From assembly GCA_031362805.1 (NCBI GenBank), contig JANLTG010000142.1, positions 31,328 to 95,327 on the forward strand: DNA of 64,000 nt. Direction: 5' to 3'. How positions within the stretch are numbered: the stretch's first letter is position 1; each line of letters begins with the position of its first letter. Positions 3,028 to 12,252 of the stretch are shown here, in pieces. The translations under genes were made by a program, and so were the position numbers. Source of the stretch: a bacterium. GTDB taxonomy: Bacteria > Verrucomicrobiota > Verrucomicrobiia > Limisphaerales > RI-55. A model generated the notes under the pieces. The model had not been told where the DNA came from. It saw nothing but the letters and a program-made list of their open reading frames with translations, and searched no databases.

Positions 3028-4092
3028 ATGACGCCCGCTGAATTCCGCCTTTGCCATCCGGACGTGTTCTATTTGGAGCCGGGGGAACCCGGCCCGCTCG
3101 ACGCCTTCTTGCGTAAAGGTGGTGTGCTGGATGAGTCGGAAAAAATCCAGACGGCCGCGCGCGCTGGCGATGGCAACATGAACTGCACGGTTCGCGTCAC
3201 GACGGGCCGGCGCACACTCATTGTGAAGCAAGCGCGCCCGTGGGTGGAGAAGTATCCCCAGTTCGCCGCACCGTGGGACCGTGCCTGTCGCGAGGCGGAG
3301 TTTTATCAACTGACCGCCGGGCAGGCTCGGGTGGCGGACATGATGCCGCGCCTGATTTATTTCGATGCCGACGCCCGTGTGCTGGTGCTGGAAGATCTTG
3401 GTCACGCGAAGGATTATACCGGCGTCTACCGAGGCGAGGCGTTCACGAGCGAGGAACTTCGTTCACTGGGCGGCTATCTCTCGGCGCTGCATGGAGCGTT
3501 TGGTGAAGGCGCCGCTGATCGCCTGCTCACGAACCGCGAAATGCGCGCGCTGAATCACGCGCATATCTTTGTGATCCCGCTGGCCGAAAACAACGGGCTG
3601 GATCTCGACCAGATCACCCCGGGGCTCGCGGCGGTTGCCGGGCCGCTCAAGGCGGATGCTGCGTTTTGCGAAACGGTAAGCCGACTGGGTCGTGATGTGT
3701 ATCTCGCTGACGGACCGTGTCTGCTGCACGGCGATTTTTTCCCGGGAAGCTTCATTCGCACCGCTGCTGGTCCGCGCGTTATCGATCCCGAGTTTGGTTT
3801 CTTTGGCCGGCCGGAGCTTGATGTGGCCGTTTTCCTCGCGCACCTCTTGCTGGCCCATCAACCGCCCCACTTGCAGCGAGCCTTTCGACAGGATTACTTG
3901 CTGCCGGCTGGTTTCGAGGAAGAACTCATGCTGAAGTTGGTGGGTGTCGAGATCATGCGCCGATTGATTGGATACGCCCAGTTGCCCATCGGTTACGGTC
4001 TTGATCGCAAACGAGAGCTGCTGGAGCTTTCGCGAGACATGGTTCTCAATCCGCATCCGCAGTTGCTCCAGCTTTCAGCCCATTCATCATGA
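3028..4092 (+). CDS. APH-fold phosphotransferase, methylthioribose-kinase (MtnK)-like
   Basis: 354 aa with AGDGNMNCTVRV (MtnK-type GDGNxN loop) and the catalytic LLHGDFFPGSF motif. Confidence 0.7.
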   Translation: MTPAEFRLCHPDVFYLEPGEPGPLDAFLRKGGVLDESEKIQTAARAGDGNMNCTVRVTTGRRTLIVKQARPWVEKYPQFAAPWDRACREAEFYQLTAGQARVADMMPRLIYFDADARVLVLEDLGHAKDYTGVYRGEAFTSEELRSLGGYLSALHGAFGEGAADRLLTNREMRALNHAHIFVIPLAENNGLDLDQITPGLAAVAGPLKADAAFCETVSRLGRDVYLADGPCLLHGDFFPGSFIRTAAGPRVIDPEFGFFGRPELDVAVFLAHLLLAHQPPHLQRAFRQDYLLPAGFEEELMLKLVGVEIMRRLIGYAQLPIGYGLDRKRELLELSRDMVLNPHPQLLQLSAHSS

Positions 4093-7900: not shown

Positions 7901-8353
7901 ATGAAACCCATCCACATTCCCTCCGAGAGCGGCCAGCAGTTGAACATCCTCGGCATCCCGATGCTCATCCGCCTCCACGGCCGCGATACGGGAGGCATAG
8001 TCAGCGTGGTCGAGTCACACGATGAGCCGGGTGGCGGCCCGCCGGCACACATCCATCACCGCGAGGACGAGACATTCCAGATCCTTGAGGGCGAATACGA
8101 GTGGACCGTTGGGGACAAGAATTTTGTTGCTCAGAAGGGCGCGACGGTTTTTGCGCCGCGCGGTATTCCGCATACCTACCGCTATCTCGGCCAGACGCCC
8201 GGCCGGCTCATGTGCATCATCACCCCGTCAGGCTTCGAGGGCTTCTTCGAGGAAATCGGCGCGCTGACTCCGCAGCAACAGCAGGACATCCCGCGCGTGA
8301 TGGAGATTGCGAAGAAATATGGGCTCGAGATCCTGCCGCCGCCGGGAGCGTGA
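7901..8353 (+). CDS. cupin domain protein
   Basis: 150 aa with the cupin metal motifs GGGPPAHIHHREDETF and GATVFAPRGIPHTY. Confidence 0.85.
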   Translation: MKPIHIPSESGQQLNILGIPMLIRLHGRDTGGIVSVVESHDEPGGGPPAHIHHREDETFQILEGEYEWTVGDKNFVAQKGATVFAPRGIPHTYRYLGQTPGRLMCIITPSGFEGFFEEIGALTPQQQQDIPRVMEIAKKYGLEILPPPGA

Positions 8354-8410: not shown

Positions 8411-8554
8411 GAAAAGTTTTTCCACCTTCGCCTTCACTGCTGCATCCATCTTGATCAACGGTGGCCAGGGGCGTTTGAAACCTTCGCCCGGGATTTTCTT
8501 CGTCGCGTCGAAGCCGAGTTTGTTGCCGCTGGCGATTTCGCTGTGCGGGGCATG
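8411..8554 (-). pseudogene. displaced 3'-end fragment (copy 3, most diverged) of the UbiD-family decarboxylase gene
   Basis: One frame of ORF 8228..8836 reads HAPHSEIASGNKLGFDATKKIPGEGFKRPWPPLIKMDAAVKAKVEKLF. This is homologous to the C-terminus of the intact gene at 10681..12252 (HATSEIAMGSKQGFDATKKLAGEGFKRPWPPLIKM). It has no start and no proper stop. At DNA level it resembles copy 2, especially over 8420-8543. Confidence 0.6.
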
Positions 8555-8561
8555 GCTGACT

Positions 8562-8993
8562 TCAACGCGCAATGGGGTTCTTCCATTTGAGTCCACGGAA
8601 GCGCGAGAAGTCGGCGTCGCTCGAGTGCAACACGCAGTTGTGCTCCACGGCGAGCGCGGCCAGGTGCGCGTCGGAGACCAGGTTGCCCACCGCATTCCCG
8701 CTGCGCAGCATTTGTTGAAAGATGCTCCAGTGCTGGTCCGTCGGTTGAAGGACGCGCACGCAGGATTGGTTGAACCAGCTCTGCACGCGCTCGGTGGCTT
8801 CCTTGAGCGTGAGCGGGCGCTGGTGGAGTCGCGCATTGGTGCCGATGCGGATGAAAGCGTTCAGCACCGGCCAGCACAAACCGACCGGCTCGGAACCACT
8901 CAGTTGGGCATCCCACCAGGTGCGAGACGCTTCGTGATGTTCAGACAAACTGTCCTCAGCGTAGAGCAGGAGATTCGCATCGACGAGGATCAT
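8562..8993 (-). CDS. vapC: type II toxin VapC (PIN-domain ribonuclease)
   Basis: MILVDANLLLYAED, SDAHLAALAVEH and SSDADFSRF give the PIN acidic residues. 143 aa, with a 4-nt overlap with the upstream antitoxin gene. Confidence 0.9.
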   Translation of the reverse strand: MILVDANLLLYAEDSLSEHHEASRTWWDAQLSGSEPVGLCWPVLNAFIRIGTNARLHQRPLTLKEATERVQSWFNQSCVRVLQPTDQHWSIFQQMLRSGNAVGNLVSDAHLAALAVEHNCVLHSSDADFSRFRGLKWKNPIAR

Positions 8994-9235
8994 GAGTGGT
9001 CTTCCCCCTCGGCGGCGGCGATGAGTTCCGAGATGTTGTCGTAGCTGAAGCCCCGGCGCAGACCAAGCGGACGCGGCTTCGTGCGGTACGGCTTGGCGGC
9101 GGGCGGCGCGAGGATTTCGTCCAGGCCCACGCGCAAGGCGGCGTTGATCACTTCCTTGAAAGGCTTGTGCAACTTGGCCGCGCCCTTCTTGGCTTTGGCG
9201 GCAATGTCAGGGTCAAGCGTCAACGTGGTTCTCAT
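8990..9235 (-). CDS. vapB: type II antitoxin (VapB-type)
   Basis: 81 aa starting MRTTLTLDPDIAAKAKK, immediately upstream of and overlapping vapC. Confidence 0.75.
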   Translation of the reverse strand: MRTTLTLDPDIAAKAKKGAAKLHKPFKEVINAALRVGLDEILAPPAAKPYRTKPRPLGLRRGFSYDNISELIAAAEGEDHS

Positions 9236-9265
9236 GCAGGCATCATGATGCTTTTACTTGGTGTG

Positions 9266-9463
9266 TCAACGCGCGCCACTCATCAACTTGTCCACTTTCG
9301 CCTTCACTGCGGCATCCATCTTGATGAGCGGCGGCCAGGGGCGTTTGAAACCTTCGCCCGCCAGTTTCTTCGTCGCGTCGAAGCCTTGTTTGCTACCCAT
9401 CGCGATTTCGCTGGTGGCGTGATCGAGCACGTCGGACGGGCCTTTGGTGAAGATGCTGTCGCG
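9266..9463 (-). pseudogene. displaced 3'-end fragment (copy 2) of the UbiD-family decarboxylase gene
   Basis: ORF 9266..9496 contains RDSIFTKGPSDVLDHATSEIAMGSKQGFDATKKLAGEGFKRPWPPLIKM, identical to the intact protein. Nt 9321-9463 match 10736-10878, 143 nt with about 7 mismatches by eye. Homology stops abruptly at 9463/9464. The fragment carries its own divergent tail, DAAVKAKVDKLMSGAR*. Confidence 0.8.
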
Positions 9464-9486
9464 TCCCATCCGGCAAGGGTCGCGGT

Positions 9487-10668
9487 TTATGACCACAAAA
9501 CGGATCGGTCAATGGACTTGATGGTGGCTCGGCCCGTCAACGCCATGGCCATCTGAAACTCGTTGCGCAGGATGTTGACGACCTTGGCCACTCCTTCGTC
9601 GCCATTTACGGCGAGGCCATAAACATAGGGACGACCAATCAGCACCGCAGTGGCGCCGAGCGCGATGGCCTTGAGCACATCGGTTCCGCGACGGATTCCT
9701 CCGTCCACCAGCACCGGCACCCGGCCCGCCACTTTCTTCACGACCGGCTCCAGCGCGTTGATGGAAGCGGGCAGCGTGTCGAGACAGCGGCCACCATGGT
9801 TCGAGACGACGATCCCGGCGGCGCCTGTTCGGACAGCGATGGCCGCATCATCTGGATTCATGATGCCTTTGAGCAAAACCGGCAACCGCGTAAGAGAAAG
9901 CAGCCATTCGATGGCTTCCCACGTGAAACTGCCCAGGATGGGCAAACCCGAAGCTGGTTGTTGATTGAGCTTTTGGTAGTAGGGCGTCTCGAAGTCCGCG
10001 GGGACTTGGAAACCCAGGCGTTGAATACGGTTTCGCGCGCCAGCAAAGGGCGCGTCGACCGTCACGACAAACGCGCGACACCCGAACTTCTCCGCTTCCT
10101 GCACCACGCCACGGACAAACTCACGACGTTCCTTGCGCAGGTCGTAAAGTTGAAACCACAGTGGAGCCTTCGCAACGGGCTCGATGTCTTGAAGTCGCCG
10201 GGTCGAAAGACTGCTCACGACGAAGGTGGCCCCGGCCGCCCCTGCTCCGCGCGCGGTGGCAACCTCCCCCTCGGGATGCGAAAGGCGATGCCACGCGGTA
10301 GGCGCGAGCAGGATTGGATGCGGCATCTCCCGCCCGAACAACGTGACGCGCGTGTCGATCTTTTCCACATCCACAAGCACCTTCGGACGCAAACGAATTT
10401 GATCGAATGCCTCCCGGTTCCAACGAATAGTCAACTCGTCCGCTGCGCCGCTGGCGATGTATTCGTAGGCAAAATGAGAGAGGCGCTCTTTTGCCAGAGG
10501 TTCGAAATCAGACAAGCAAACGGGAGAAGCATTCGCGTCGCTGGACTTTGGGGACGCGGGCCGGCTCGGTTCTGGCGCGTCTTTGTCTGCCGCTTGGACT
10601 CTGCCAAGCGCTGCACTGCTCACCGCAACGCCAACCGTCGTCAACATTTGTCGTCGGGTCAGTTTCAT
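9487..10668 (-). CDS. FMN-dependent alpha-hydroxy-acid oxidase/dehydrogenase (LldD/glycolate oxidase family) with a Tat-type signal peptide
   Basis: MKLTRRQMLTTVGVAVSSAALGRVQA is followed by family hallmarks (ASGAADELT, LWFQLY, VVTVDAP, GIVVSNHGGR, VLVDGGIRRGTDVLKAIALGA). Confidence 0.85.
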   Translation of the reverse strand: MKLTRRQMLTTVGVAVSSAALGRVQAADKDAPEPSRPASPKSSDANASPVCLSDFEPLAKERLSHFAYEYIASGAADELTIRWNREAFDQIRLRPKVLVDVEKIDTRVTLFGREMPHPILLAPTAWHRLSHPEGEVATARGAGAAGATFVVSSLSTRRLQDIEPVAKAPLWFQLYDLRKERREFVRGVVQEAEKFGCRAFVVTVDAPFAGARNRIQRLGFQVPADFETPYYQKLNQQPASGLPILGSFTWEAIEWLLSLTRLPVLLKGIMNPDDAAIAVRTGAAGIVVSNHGGRCLDTLPASINALEPVVKKVAGRVPVLVDGGIRRGTDVLKAIALGATAVLIGRPYVYGLAVNGDEGVAKVVNILRNEFQMAMALTGRATIKSIDRSVLWS

Positions 10669-10680
10669 AGCGTTTAAGTT

Positions 10681-12252
10681 TCAGCGGTTACCGCCGAAAA
10701 TGGAATCAATTTTCCGGCGCACATCGTCGTTCATTTTGATCAGCGGCGGCCAGGGGCGTTTGAAACCTTCGCCCGCCAGTTTCTTTGTCGCGTCGAAGCC
10801 TTGTTTGCTGCCCATGGCGATCTCGCTGGTCGCGTGGTCGAGCACGTCGGACGGGCCTTTGGTGAAGATGCTGTCGCGCTGCGGGTCGGTGTTGGCGAAG
10901 AGATGGAAGAGGACTTCGCTGGTGTTGTGGACGTTCACGTCGGCGTCCACCACCACGATGTATTTGGTGAACATCATCTGCCCCATGCCCCAGAGGCCGT
11001 GCATGATTTTGTAGGCCTGCATGGGGTAGGTTTTCTTGATGCTGACGAAGACAAGGTTGTGGAACGTGCCTTCCGCTGGCAGCGCGATGTCCACGATCTC
11101 CGGAAAGTTCATCTTGAAGATGGGCAGGAAGAGCTTCACGGACGCGCCGCCAATGTAGAAGTCTTCCATGGGCGGGATGCCGACGATGGTAGCGGGATAG
11201 ACGGCGTCTTTGCGGTGCGTGATGGCGGTGATGTGAAAGACGGGATACGGCTCGGGCAAGGTGTAGTAGCCGGTGTGGTCGCCGAACGGGCCTTCGTCGC
11301 GGAGCGGCTCGGTGGGATCGATGTAGCCTTCGATGACGAAGTCGGAGTTGGCGGGGACTTCGAGGTCGTTGGTCTCGCACTTCACGAGCTCGACGGATTT
11401 CTTGCGAAGGTAACCGGCCAACAAAAATTCATCCAGTCCGTCCGGCATGGGCGCGGTGGCGGCGAAGGGGAACATAGGATCGCCGCCGAGGAAGATGGCG
11501 ACAGGCATGCGCTCGCCCTTCTCGTAATAGCGGCGTCCGTGGCGTGCGGCGACTTTCTGCAACTGCCAGTGCATCCCCGTCGTTTTGTCGTCGTAGATCT
11601 GGATGCGATACATGCCGACGTTGCGTTCGCCGGTGTCCGGGTCGCGCGTGACGACGCAGGGGAGCGTGATGAAGCGGCCGCCGTCGAGCGGCCAGCATTT
11701 CAGGATCGGCAGGTTGAGGAGGGTCGGAGGCGTTGTGGTGGTTGGGGGTAACTGGATTGGACCGGCTGGGAGAGGGGCAGAGGGGAAAGGGGGAAGAGGG
11801 GGTTTCTCCTCTGCGCCTTTTCCCCATTTCTCCTTCTCCTCAAAGCGATGGATCACTTCCTTGCACGGACCGCTCTTCACGGTCTTCGGCTTCGCGTGGC
11901 GCAGATCGATGGCCAGCCCGAGCAGCTTCATCGCCTCGCGCATCGATGTCGGCGGCTTGGCCTTCATCAACGCGCCGAGTTCGTTCGCGACGTCGTCCAC
12001 GGAATTCGCGCCCATGCTCATGGCCATGCGCTTGTGCGAGCCGAGCGTGTTGATGGCGACGGGGAAGGGCGAGACGACGCCGTTGACGGTGGGCTTCTCG
12101 AAGAGCAACGCCTTGCCGCCACCGGGCTGCTTCATCTCGCGATCAGCGATCTCGGTGATCTCAAGTTCGGTGGCGACGGGTTGGGTGATGCGGATGAGTT
12201 CGCCAGCGCGGTCGAGGGCGGAGACAAAATCCCGGAAGGAATCGAATGCCAT
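10681..12252 (-). CDS. UbiD family decarboxylase (menaquinone/ubiquinone-type prenyl-FMN decarboxylase family)
   Basis: 523 aa with ITQPVATELEITEIADR, PILKCWPLDGGRFITLP, MYRIQIYD and GPFGDHTGYY. It contains an atypical Pro-rich insert, described in the findings. Confidence 0.9.
   Translation of the reverse strand: MAFDSFRDFVSALDRAGELIRITQPVATELEITEIADREMKQPGGGKALLFEKPTVNGVVSPFPVAINTLGSHKRMAMSMGANSVDDVANELGALMKAKPPTSMREAMKLLGLAIDLRHAKPKTVKSGPCKEVIHRFEEKEKWGKGAEEKPPLPPFPSAPLPAGPIQLPPTTTTPPTLLNLPILKCWPLDGGRFITLPCVVTRDPDTGERNVGMYRIQIYDDKTTGMHWQLQKVAARHGRRYYEKGERMPVAIFLGGDPMFPFAATAPMPDGLDEFLLAGYLRKKSVELVKCETNDLEVPANSDFVIEGYIDPTEPLRDEGPFGDHTGYYTLPEPYPVFHITAITHRKDAVYPATIVGIPPMEDFYIGGASVKLFLPIFKMNFPEIVDIALPAEGTFHNLVFVSIKKTYPMQAYKIMHGLWGMGQMMFTKYIVVVDADVNVHNTSEVLFHLFANTDPQRDSIFTKGPSDVLDHATSEIAMGSKQGFDATKKLAGEGFKRPWPPLIKMNDDVRRKIDSIFGGNR

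Follow-up and report, generated by a model that had tools for sequence, protein, structure and literature searches.

How do genes with no evident relation to one another come to be stacked behind a housekeeping gene, each stack member followed by a further copy of that gene's own 3′ end? The question is raised by a 64,000-nt stretch of the Verrucomicrobiota (Limisphaerales) contig JANLTG010000142.1 (assembly GCA_031362805.1, positions 31,328 to 95,327), hereafter the window, from a soil or freshwater organism, in which the last conserved codons of a UbiD-family gene, essential to menaquinone synthesis, are found three times, with a different cargo in each of the two intervals. Comparison with related loci indicates that the 3′ end of ubiD is a recombination hot spot across a Verrucomicrobiota clade (Limisphaerales/Pedosphaera-like). 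Each of the units that accumulate there is made up of a new C-terminal tail, stop codon included, followed by one gene or a few in the orientation of ubiD and then by a 5′-truncated copy of the conserved ubiD 3′ coding segment. We favour, at a probability of about one half, the view that these stacks grow by C-terminal displacement through anchor homology at a housekeeping gene, brought about by the host's own recombination with no dedicated recombinase.

The stack in the window and its serial acquisition

Positions within the repeat are numbered rel 1-147 over the last 49 conserved ubiD codons (RDSIF...PLIKM, residues 459-507). From the recipient gene outwards, the locus comprises the following features.

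10681..12252, minus strand: intact UbiD-family gene, 523 aa, menaquinone-biosynthesis decarboxylase type, recipient of the stack (Pfam and NCBIfam)
10732..10878, minus strand: copy 1, rel 1-147 of the working gene, 147 nt or 49 codons (repeat search and alignment)
10681..10731, minus strand: tail 1, NDDVRRKIDSIFGGNR plus stop, identical at 49/51 nt to the tail ahead of the same cargo in L081
9487..10668, minus strand: cargo 1, FMN-dependent alpha-hydroxy-acid oxidase/dehydrogenase with a twin-arginine signal (Pfam FMN_dh, E = 1e-122)
9317..9463, minus strand: copy 2, displaced rel 1-147, the former working end of ubiD (139/147 nt identical to copy 1)
9266..9316, minus strand: tail 2, DAAVKAKVDKLMSGAR plus stop, the gene's tail before the FMN-oxidase unit came (alignment)
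8562..9235, minus strand: cargo 2, a vapB-like antitoxin gene (8990-9235) and a VapC PIN toxin gene (8562-8993) overlapping by 4 nt (TIGR00028, Pfam PIN)
8411..8543, minus strand: copy 3, the oldest displaced end, from rel 51 into the tail DAAVKAKVEKLF, which has no in-frame stop (nhmmer E = 2e-33)
7901..8353, plus strand: Cupin_2 gene, convergent with ubiD, native right flank outside the stack (Pfam Cupin_2)

The initial annotation had placed three copies of the ubiD 3′ end at these places on the minus strand, and alignment, tblastn and nhmmer all recovered them there and supported their homology to the gene's end (copies 2 and 3: tblastn E = 1e-39 and 9e-21, nhmmer E = 1e-51 and 2e-33). The repeat is the sole long direct-repeat family detected by repeat search in the window, all others being at most 42 nt. 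Copies 1 and 2 specify the same 49-residue peptide, as had been reported, and differ by 8 mismatches, all of them synonymous; the length first given for the segment (143 nt at 10736-10878, with about 7 mismatches) has to be corrected to 147 nt at 10732-10878. The three differing tails had been read correctly, and so had the spacings: the FMN_dh ATG follows the ubiD stop after 12 nt, and copy 2 follows the FMN_dh stop after 23 nt. Tail sequence changes abruptly after rel 147: tails 1 and 2 agree at only 24/51 nt, whereas the preceding 147 nt are 95% identical. Copy 3 corresponds to codons 18-49 of the repeat, its first 50 nt being absent, and matches copies 1 and 2 at 84/97 nt. Its clear start lies 18 nt from the vapC stop; the distance of less than 10 nt given at first holds if a weaker gapped similarity, which may extend to ~8558 and thus lie flush with that stop, is counted.

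Searches against Pfam and NCBIfam confirmed that a single FMN alpha-hydroxy-acid oxidase gene lies between copies 1 and 2 and a single vapBC pair between copies 2 and 3. The oxidase carries a TRRQML twin-arginine motif at its N-terminus, and VapC scores 136.6 bits against TIGR00028 (cut-off 73.6) in addition to its Pfam PIN match. The 81-aa VapB-like partner matched no family; its N-terminus, MRTTLTLD, is of the kind seen in VapB antitoxins, and the protein is 96% identical to a counterpart in L020 that likewise lies between two fragments. A plausible candidate operator for vapBC autoregulation is the perfect palindrome GCATCATGATGC of 12 nt at 9240-9251, a few nucleotides ahead of the vapB start (9235). 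As to the recipient, its product matches all three Pfam families UbiD_N, UbiD and UbiD_C and, over its full length, TIGR03701 (mena_SCO4490; 588 bits against a curated cut-off of 495.9).

The initial annotation had proposed that units made of a replacement ubiD 3′ end and its cargo were acquired serially, and this proposal is supported by segments shared with two relatives as well as by empty and one-unit sites. The part of the window running from rel 14 of copy 2 through tail 2 and vapBC to copy 3 is collinear with L020 over 1061 nt (81% identity). The L020 tail ahead of the same vapBC, DAAVKEKVNEFLKRAR, is similar to tail 2, and the last L020 fragment is orthologous to copy 3, both having the unusual ASGNKLG. 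The head unit of L020 is a different one of 8 kb, carrying P-type ATPase/Usp, CitMHS transporter, Na+/H+ antiporter and 2-hydroxyacid dehydrogenase genes, and it exemplifies the other cargos that were to be looked for behind the ubiD of relatives. Conversely, the 3′ part of ubiD, tail 1, the FMN-oxidase gene and copy 2 up to rel ~170 are collinear with L081 over 2.4 kb (88%), beyond which L081 has another tail, a 182-aa gene and a further fragment. Because L081 and L020 share different parts of the window array, copy 2 is the hinge joining an L081-like to an L020-like module. At least two insertions took place in the window, the vapBC unit first and then the FMN-oxidase unit, which came from an L081-like donor and was joined inside copy 2.

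The native cupin border provides a series of states. In L027 ubiD is followed directly by the cupin gene (an empty site), L117 holds one unit and the window two, and more DNA lies between ubiD and the cupin border in L053, L004 and L030; the arrangement is therefore not one fixed in all relatives. Cargo also changes place within arrays. A 256-aa gene is in unit 1 in L047 and in unit 2 in L031, a nucleotidyltransferase pair is in unit 1 in L049 and in unit 2 in L023, and DUF2204, a 209-aa family and genes resembling RAYTs (transposases associated with repetitive extragenic palindromic, REP, sequences) recur likewise at differing array positions. These comparisons show that incoming DNA recombines within the conserved coding segment, that the donor supplies the working end while the resident end and everything behind it move downstream, and that arrays recombine with each other inside the repeat. 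As for the origin of cargo 1, its homologue in L081 (91% identity) also lies behind ubiD; homologues of 73-84% identity (L082-L086) are found in unrelated chromosomal contexts, so that this cargo was recruited from an ordinary gene.

Some finer reconstructions did not hold. A one-step model with a single crossover, tried on the window and L081, finds no one point that fits all four copies, and later gene conversion would have to be invoked. The lower identity of the 5′ third of ubiD with L081 might have marked a recombination tract beginning inside the gene; it is matched by an equal drop against L020 and is thus no evidence for one. Neither copy 1 nor copy 2 could be named native, the best relative (92.5% nt identity in the gene body) being too distant to tell. 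Contigs of the same species with or without the FMN-oxidase unit were sought in a metagenome collection with an exact 50-nt lineage-specific probe, and nothing was found.

Several further observations concern the locus itself. Copy 2 forms an intact 76-aa open reading frame (ORF; 9266-9496, minus strand), whose start may be a GTG that overlaps the end of FMN_dh or an ATG placed two codons ahead of RDSIF. The corresponding displaced-end ORF of L081 (7158-7403) begins at an ATG overlapping the FMN_dh stop (ATGA). Judging from these reading frames, translation of displaced ends is possible and might be coupled to that of the next cargo. The linker between UbiD_N and UbiD (~11740-11850, minus strand) contains a proline-rich, low-complexity in-frame insert, EKEKWGKGAEEKPPLPPFPSAPLPAGPIQLPPTTTTPP, whose length varies among relatives. 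Within it, CCCTCTCCC recurs elsewhere in the window only in a 40-nt inverted repeat (19234-19273/19397-19436, arms 93% complementary), and the insert may be an element of the REP or MITE (miniature inverted-repeat transposable element) kind tolerated in a coding linker. The gene upstream of ubiD is a DUF885 gene in the window and mdh in L008 and L068.

Distribution and cargo across the clade

The sample comprised 161 related loci, 81 from a scan of one genome per species (80 plus the window) and 80 independent metagenome contigs. Nearly all of the 80 loci with a close ubiD relative returned by the scan belong to Verrucomicrobiota metagenome-assembled genomes (MAGs) that bear the label Limisphaerales, Pedosphaera or 'subdivision 3'. 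Searched with a nucleotide profile of the tail, 27 of the 81 loci, window included, have two to five tail copies and 21 of the 80 metagenome contigs have multiple copies, though single-copy contigs there have a median of only 2.5 kb downstream. At E < 1e-6 there are arrays at 41 of the 161 loci (41-48 overall), with 54 units and inter-copy gaps of 54-8639 nt (median 735 nt). The extra copies lie downstream of ubiD and on its strand: 54 fragments at this threshold against none on the opposite strand. The two exceptions to this orientation are a weak match in L157 (E = 5e-3) and an internal ubiD piece in L147 (13175-13381, rel -361 to -155, 92% identity), downstream of the gene on the opposite strand; no other clearly inverted fragment was seen. 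Of the same-strand dispersed repeat pairs in 1.28 Mb of flanks, 72 derive from ubiD ends as against 17 from elsewhere.

The first gene 3′ of ubiD is different in almost every species; as a rule it has the orientation of ubiD, and its start lies 2-70 nt past the stop. All family-matched cargo ORFs tested are on the ubiD strand, and a crude ORF count gave 53 plus versus 23 minus. Most units measure 0.7-1.4 kb and hold one or two genes; some reach 4-8 kb. The ~40 cargo ORFs searched with Pfam include toxin–antitoxin (TA), nucleotidyltransferase, methylase, OLD-like ATPase, SNF2, KAP, transporter and enzyme families.

Since the window probably stems from a metagenome assembly, a misassembly had to be considered. 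Arrays are, however, present in 41-48 independent assemblies, and they occur within contigs of 0.4-0.9 Mb (L008, L009, L020, L056, L087), so that they are not assembly artefacts. The companion explanation, an old and fixed local duplication of the ubiD end into which genes were inserted later, accounts for direct repeats on one strand, the usual product of tandem duplication. It is contradicted by the variation in unit number and content among relatives and by the empty site, and a second objection comes from the nature of the differences between copies. Fragment and gene differ by 8 synonymous and 0 non-synonymous changes in the window (synonymous divergence, pS, 0.25), by 6 and 0 in L024, 8 and 0 in L064, and 5 and 1 in L047. 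Values of pS are 0.2-0.45, and the overall ratio of non-synonymous to synonymous divergence (pN/pS) is 0-0.36; the values for fragment 5 of L055 and for L058 and L080, where the register was off by one base, are to be disregarded. Had the end been duplicated in place and one copy left to decay neutrally, a ratio of ~0.5 and dozens of non-synonymous changes would be expected in three such pairs. Because the differences are almost only synonymous, the displaced ends are older functional alleles, each of which evolved as part of a working gene, and not decaying local duplicates. Together with tails that are unrelated at the DNA level (24/51 nt), this makes the copies different alleles, and duplication or artefact appears very improbable indeed. 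Copy 3, moreover, is closer to intact tails of other species (91/97 nt with L056) than to the window's own gene (84/97).

Three anomalies among the relatives touch on the sample. L001, L002, L010, L012 and L017 have ubiD ends of 90-94% identity and are labelled as Akkermansia muciniphila, Bifidobacterium, Sulfotelmatobacter or Methylomirabilota MAGs; they seem to be Verrucomicrobiota contigs that were misbinned or misnamed. The UbiD C-terminal segment of the window has its nearest relative in L060 (98% aa identity over 167 matched residues), whose 101-kb contig stops inside the tail repeat at 10503 (...KRPW), as would result from an assembler breaking at a repeated tail. In L052 (~10520-10900) the ubiD frame runs past IKMDAA into ~120 unrelated residues with no normal tail, as if DNA had been inserted at the tail boundary and no end had been restored.

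Tails, boundaries and the mode of displacement

The tail travels with the cargo behind it, because tail 1 of the window and that of L081 match at 49/51 nt and the tail that follows differs. The tail 1 type also stands ahead of other or deleted cargo in L023, L057, L054 and L033. It was considered that VRRKID-type tails might mark occupied sites and VKAKVEKL-type tails empty ones; both types occur at single-copy loci, and the idea was dropped. A deeper exchange is seen in L058, L080, L076 and L008. The body of the working gene is there at ~90% nt identity, but from about rel 6 onwards the gene abruptly becomes a strongly divergent allele that matches the consensus at only ~71%. A displaced fragment of the consensus type begins at rel -24 in L058 and -27 in L080; that of L076 is similar (~-23), and the eroded one of L008 begins near rel +78. 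L071 makes its switch at about rel 32, with a fragment from rel 24 onwards. Two deep classes of 3′-end alleles are seen on similar ubiD gene bodies. In four of these loci the foreign-type tail is followed by a spacer of ~120 nt with four consecutive GC-rich hairpins (e.g. GGTTTCGACGccctCGTCGAAACC and GGTCAGCGagggCGCTGACC):

L058, 2364-2483: hairpin spacer after foreign-type tail
L080, 1443-1559: hairpin spacer after foreign-type tail
L071, 10565-10684: hairpin spacer after foreign-type tail
L076, 5813-5933: hairpin spacer after foreign-type tail

In L058 and L071 this spacer ends at the same nucleotide and is joined to different ubiD positions (rel -24 and +24, respectively).

The 5′ limits of the fragments range from rel -493 to ~+124, with recurrent classes near -472, -345, -300, -233, -25, +25/30, +56 and +78. 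The points at which gene and fragment switch are equally scattered (rel ~6, ~32, 147 and beyond 176). What most fragments have in common is rel ~106-147. Some displaced pieces are 450-640 nt long, and the L128 piece is 447 nt at 96% identity. Boundaries are also eroded. The point at which one and the same vapBC family meets the fragment is rel 25 in two loci (L004 and L057), rel 56 in L031 and rel 65 in L097, and deletions in fragments are often flush with the stop codon of the cargo, which shows that displaced fragments erode from their 5′ side through deletions ending at the stop codon of the preceding cargo. Cargo itself may be lost: in the 'empty' units of L023, L057 and L054 only the first codons of a 607-aa gene are left, the gene being intact in L033, and L087 and L091 have the same layout as these 'empty' units.

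In a few genomes the 5′ end of the gene offers a mirror image of the 3′ arrays, the ubiD promoter and the first ~16 codons being duplicated upstream with cargo in between:

L008, 8198-8298 versus 8935-9035: ubiD 5′-end duplication with a PIN-type TA pair between, right after mdh
L068, 1553-1647 versus 3864-3960: ubiD 5′-end duplication with a 670-aa secreted-looking protein between, right after mdh
L047, 3081-3169 versus 8963-9049: ubiD 5′-end duplication with a 5.9-kb insert between

Weaker duplications of this kind were seen in L162, L108 and L154.

The initial annotation called the mobilisation mechanism unexplained, which is still true in part. We infer movement by homologous recombination or by homology-facilitated illegitimate recombination (HFIR) from the chimeric copy 2, the variable limits and the absence of recombinases. 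Under the favoured mechanism, a unit would be founded by HFIR, a rare and one-sided event: one end of the incoming DNA would pair with ubiD through an anchor of homology, and its other end would be joined illegitimately a short way from that anchor. The product would be no different if a circle had integrated by a single crossover. Once founded, the unit would be flanked by ubiD to the left and by a ubiD fragment to the right, and with these portable homology arms ordinary homologous recombination would then move it between genomes or array positions, or delete it. The arms would therefore make the locus self-reinforcing. Homology-driven events predict variable fragment ends, and because only events that keep a complete gene would survive, end fragments alone are expected, at both gene ends. 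Displacement by HFIR and homologous recombination has been proposed for effector arrays of type VI secretion systems (T6SS; Kirchberger et al. 2017, PMC5361080), and C-terminal displacement in rhs genes was described by Jackson et al. (2009), as cited in PMC5361080.

A number of observations weigh against this mechanism, and most of them speak at the same time for non-autonomous cassettes moved by a site-specific recombinase encoded elsewhere (integron-like, Xer-like or like the cis-mobilizable elements, CIMEs), with an att site in the ubiD 3′ coding segment. A generic process should not favour ubiD as the 72 versus 17 repeat pairs do, unless the self-reinforcement holds; a hot spot limited to one gene is what a dedicated site would give. 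The fragment boundary is exactly rel 1 in both the window and L081, although the 23-nt spacers ahead of it are only ~30% identical, and so shared a boundary resembles a defined site more than an accident. L058 and L071 have the same foreign tail and hairpin spacer, ending at the same nucleotide, at two different ubiD positions, and the gene switch adjoins the fragment start there, as it does in L080; this pattern would be expected of a conservative, site-directed insertion. Units are trimmed to ORF boundaries on both sides, like integron cassettes. HFIR, finally, is rare where it has been measured (PMC5361080). The essentially strict same-strand orientation, the small and promoter-poor units of one or two genes, the presence of rel ~106-147 in most fragments and the frequency of TA pairs among the cargo, as in chromosomal integrons, are likewise in line with a recombinase acting from elsewhere. 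To our knowledge, no route of DNA entry, natural transformation included, is known for these organisms, which also counts against displacement by the host's recombination.

Such a recombinase is nevertheless difficult to reconcile with other properties of the arrays. No integrase was found adjoining any of the 161 loci. The repeat shows no nucleotide conservation beyond coding needs: the synonymous-site entropy of 81 intact genes is no lower in it than in the rest of the gene, and a hidden site at the nucleotide level was rejected on this ground. Nor does it have hairpin or inverted-repeat structure; folded as single-stranded DNA on both strands, the three copies gave z-scores of -1.0 to +1.1 relative to shuffled sequences, and an attC- or att-like structure was likewise discarded. 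The 5′ limits and switch points are scattered and do not gather at one core, displaced pieces of 450-640 nt are far above the usual att identity blocks, and the mirror-image pattern at the ubiD 5′ end is not foreseen. We regard cassettes moved by a recombinase encoded elsewhere as a tentative and rather unlikely explanation. Somewhat more doubtful still is the bolder proposition that the ubiD 3′ end is the docking site of a new Verrucomicrobiota cassette platform, at which minimal units of tail, gene and site, trimmed to ORF ends, would be captured, stacked and exchanged, either through a dedicated enzyme whose gene lies elsewhere or through a defined mechanism directed by single strands or hairpins. 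Such a platform would be functionally an integron without IntI or attC.

The search for machinery was negative on several levels. In agreement with the initial annotation, it returned no integrase, tRNA or att-like repeat. Pfam detected no integrase in the ~40 cargo ORFs, no IntI tyrosine recombinase lies next to the entry site among cargo or neighbours, and no recombinase family with at least two members is among the 25 commonest families (128 further ORFs within 6 kb downstream, ~75 loci), a count in which a singleton may be missed. IMG/VR was scanned for the tail both at the peptide level and with degenerate DNA; no viral contig was found to carry it, and a phage or satellite origin was rejected. 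RAYT-like genes are present in two arrays (L024 10600-11178 and L055 5400-6014; NF047646, E = 2e-13 and 2e-11, below the cut-off, with a CLMPDHI motif), and REP-like hairpins in both orientations (AGCGGACgtgaGTCCGCT / AGCCGACtcacGTCGGCT) in the arrays of L024, L055 and L046 (L046 10565-10662; L055 4394-4500). They were rejected as the mobilising agent, since the window array is without such hairpins and most arrays are without a RAYT. An IS200-like gene lies beyond the L058 array, and a 369-aa minus-strand ORF between copies in L128 is transposase-like by eye only; the window array has neither.

Alternatively, the arrays could be decayed integrase-bearing islands or prophages at the ubiD 3′ end, formed by tandem accretion and subsequent deletion in the manner of tycheposons or of ICESt1 at fda. 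Stacked tycheposons push older elements inward and leave partial target copies (bioRxiv 10.1101/2020.12.28.424599), some of the present units reach 4-8 kb, and deletional erosion is demonstrable at ubiD arrays. Yet none of the 54 units in 41 arrays contains a Pfam-detectable integrase, excisionase or recombinase fragment, no viral contig has the site, and young units with pristine displaced ends (window, L024, L064) are already without a mobility gene. Decayed islands are accordingly a quite improbable source. C-terminal displacement by the host's own recombination remains the reading that we prefer.

Relation to known systems

No description of a housekeeping enzyme gene behind which unrelated mini-cassettes are stacked, in a quarter of the genomes of a clade, came up in a limited literature search. 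If the favoured reading is true, C-terminal displacement would provide a general route by which accessory genes, here TA pairs, defence-like genes and small metabolic additions, can be stacked behind a conserved housekeeping gene without obvious mobile-element machinery. The ubiD locus is a repeatable site, occupied in about a quarter of the 161 loci and on hand in empty, one-unit and multi-unit states, and it lets the frequency of homology-anchored capture be measured in uncultured soil and freshwater Verrucomicrobiota. For annotation, short ubiD-like ORFs downstream of ubiD are to be regarded as displaced ends, not as genes, and as marks of acquired DNA.

Integrase-borne islands at gene 3′ ends are well known, among them e14 and phage 21 in icd, and ICESt1 and CIMEs at fda. 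Like the ubiD units, such islands, including tycheposons at tRNA genes, bear a substitute 3′ end that keeps the target gene intact, and a displaced partial copy of the target lies at the far border; newcomers push older elements inward, and remnants accumulate. The ubiD arrays differ from them in that no integrase was seen in 161 loci, in their many 5′ limits with pieces of up to ~640 nt, and in the size of most units, 0.7-1.4 kb holding one or two genes. The arrays are not classed as integrase-mediated islands, since the search gave no recombinase and the scattered junctions point to no one core.

Chromosomal integrons contain small, mostly single-gene cassettes on one strand, trimmed to ORF ends, among which TA pairs are frequent. 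They share with the ubiD arrays the stacking of short, one-strand cassettes from one end behind a fixed entry point. Unlike integrons, the ubiD arrays have no intI, and their repeat is a coding fragment without an attC-like hairpin. The repeat follows the cargo, while the variable tail linked to the cargo precedes it. An array without IntI and attC is therefore not an integron.

The closest published logic, as the initial annotation had suggested, is that of the orphan arrays behind rhs and cdiA and of T6SS effector arrays. In these, too, a conserved 5′ part receives a replaceable 3′ end that arrives with the downstream gene or genes, and the old end keeps a conserved stub and shifts downstream on the same strand with its companion genes; growth is from the head, and no integrase is involved. 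The recipient there is a polymorphic toxin and the companion an immunity gene, whereas here the recipient is a UbiD-family housekeeping decarboxylase and the cargo (TA pairs, defence-like and metabolic genes, transporters) is unrelated to it. The 5′ end of ubiD shows the same behaviour in a few genomes, which is a further difference. The part replaced in ubiD is a tail of 16-20 residues without known specificity function, so that it is presumably the cargo, not the tail, that is selected. If the favoured reading is correct, C-terminal displacement would thus reach beyond the polymorphic toxin genes in which it was described.

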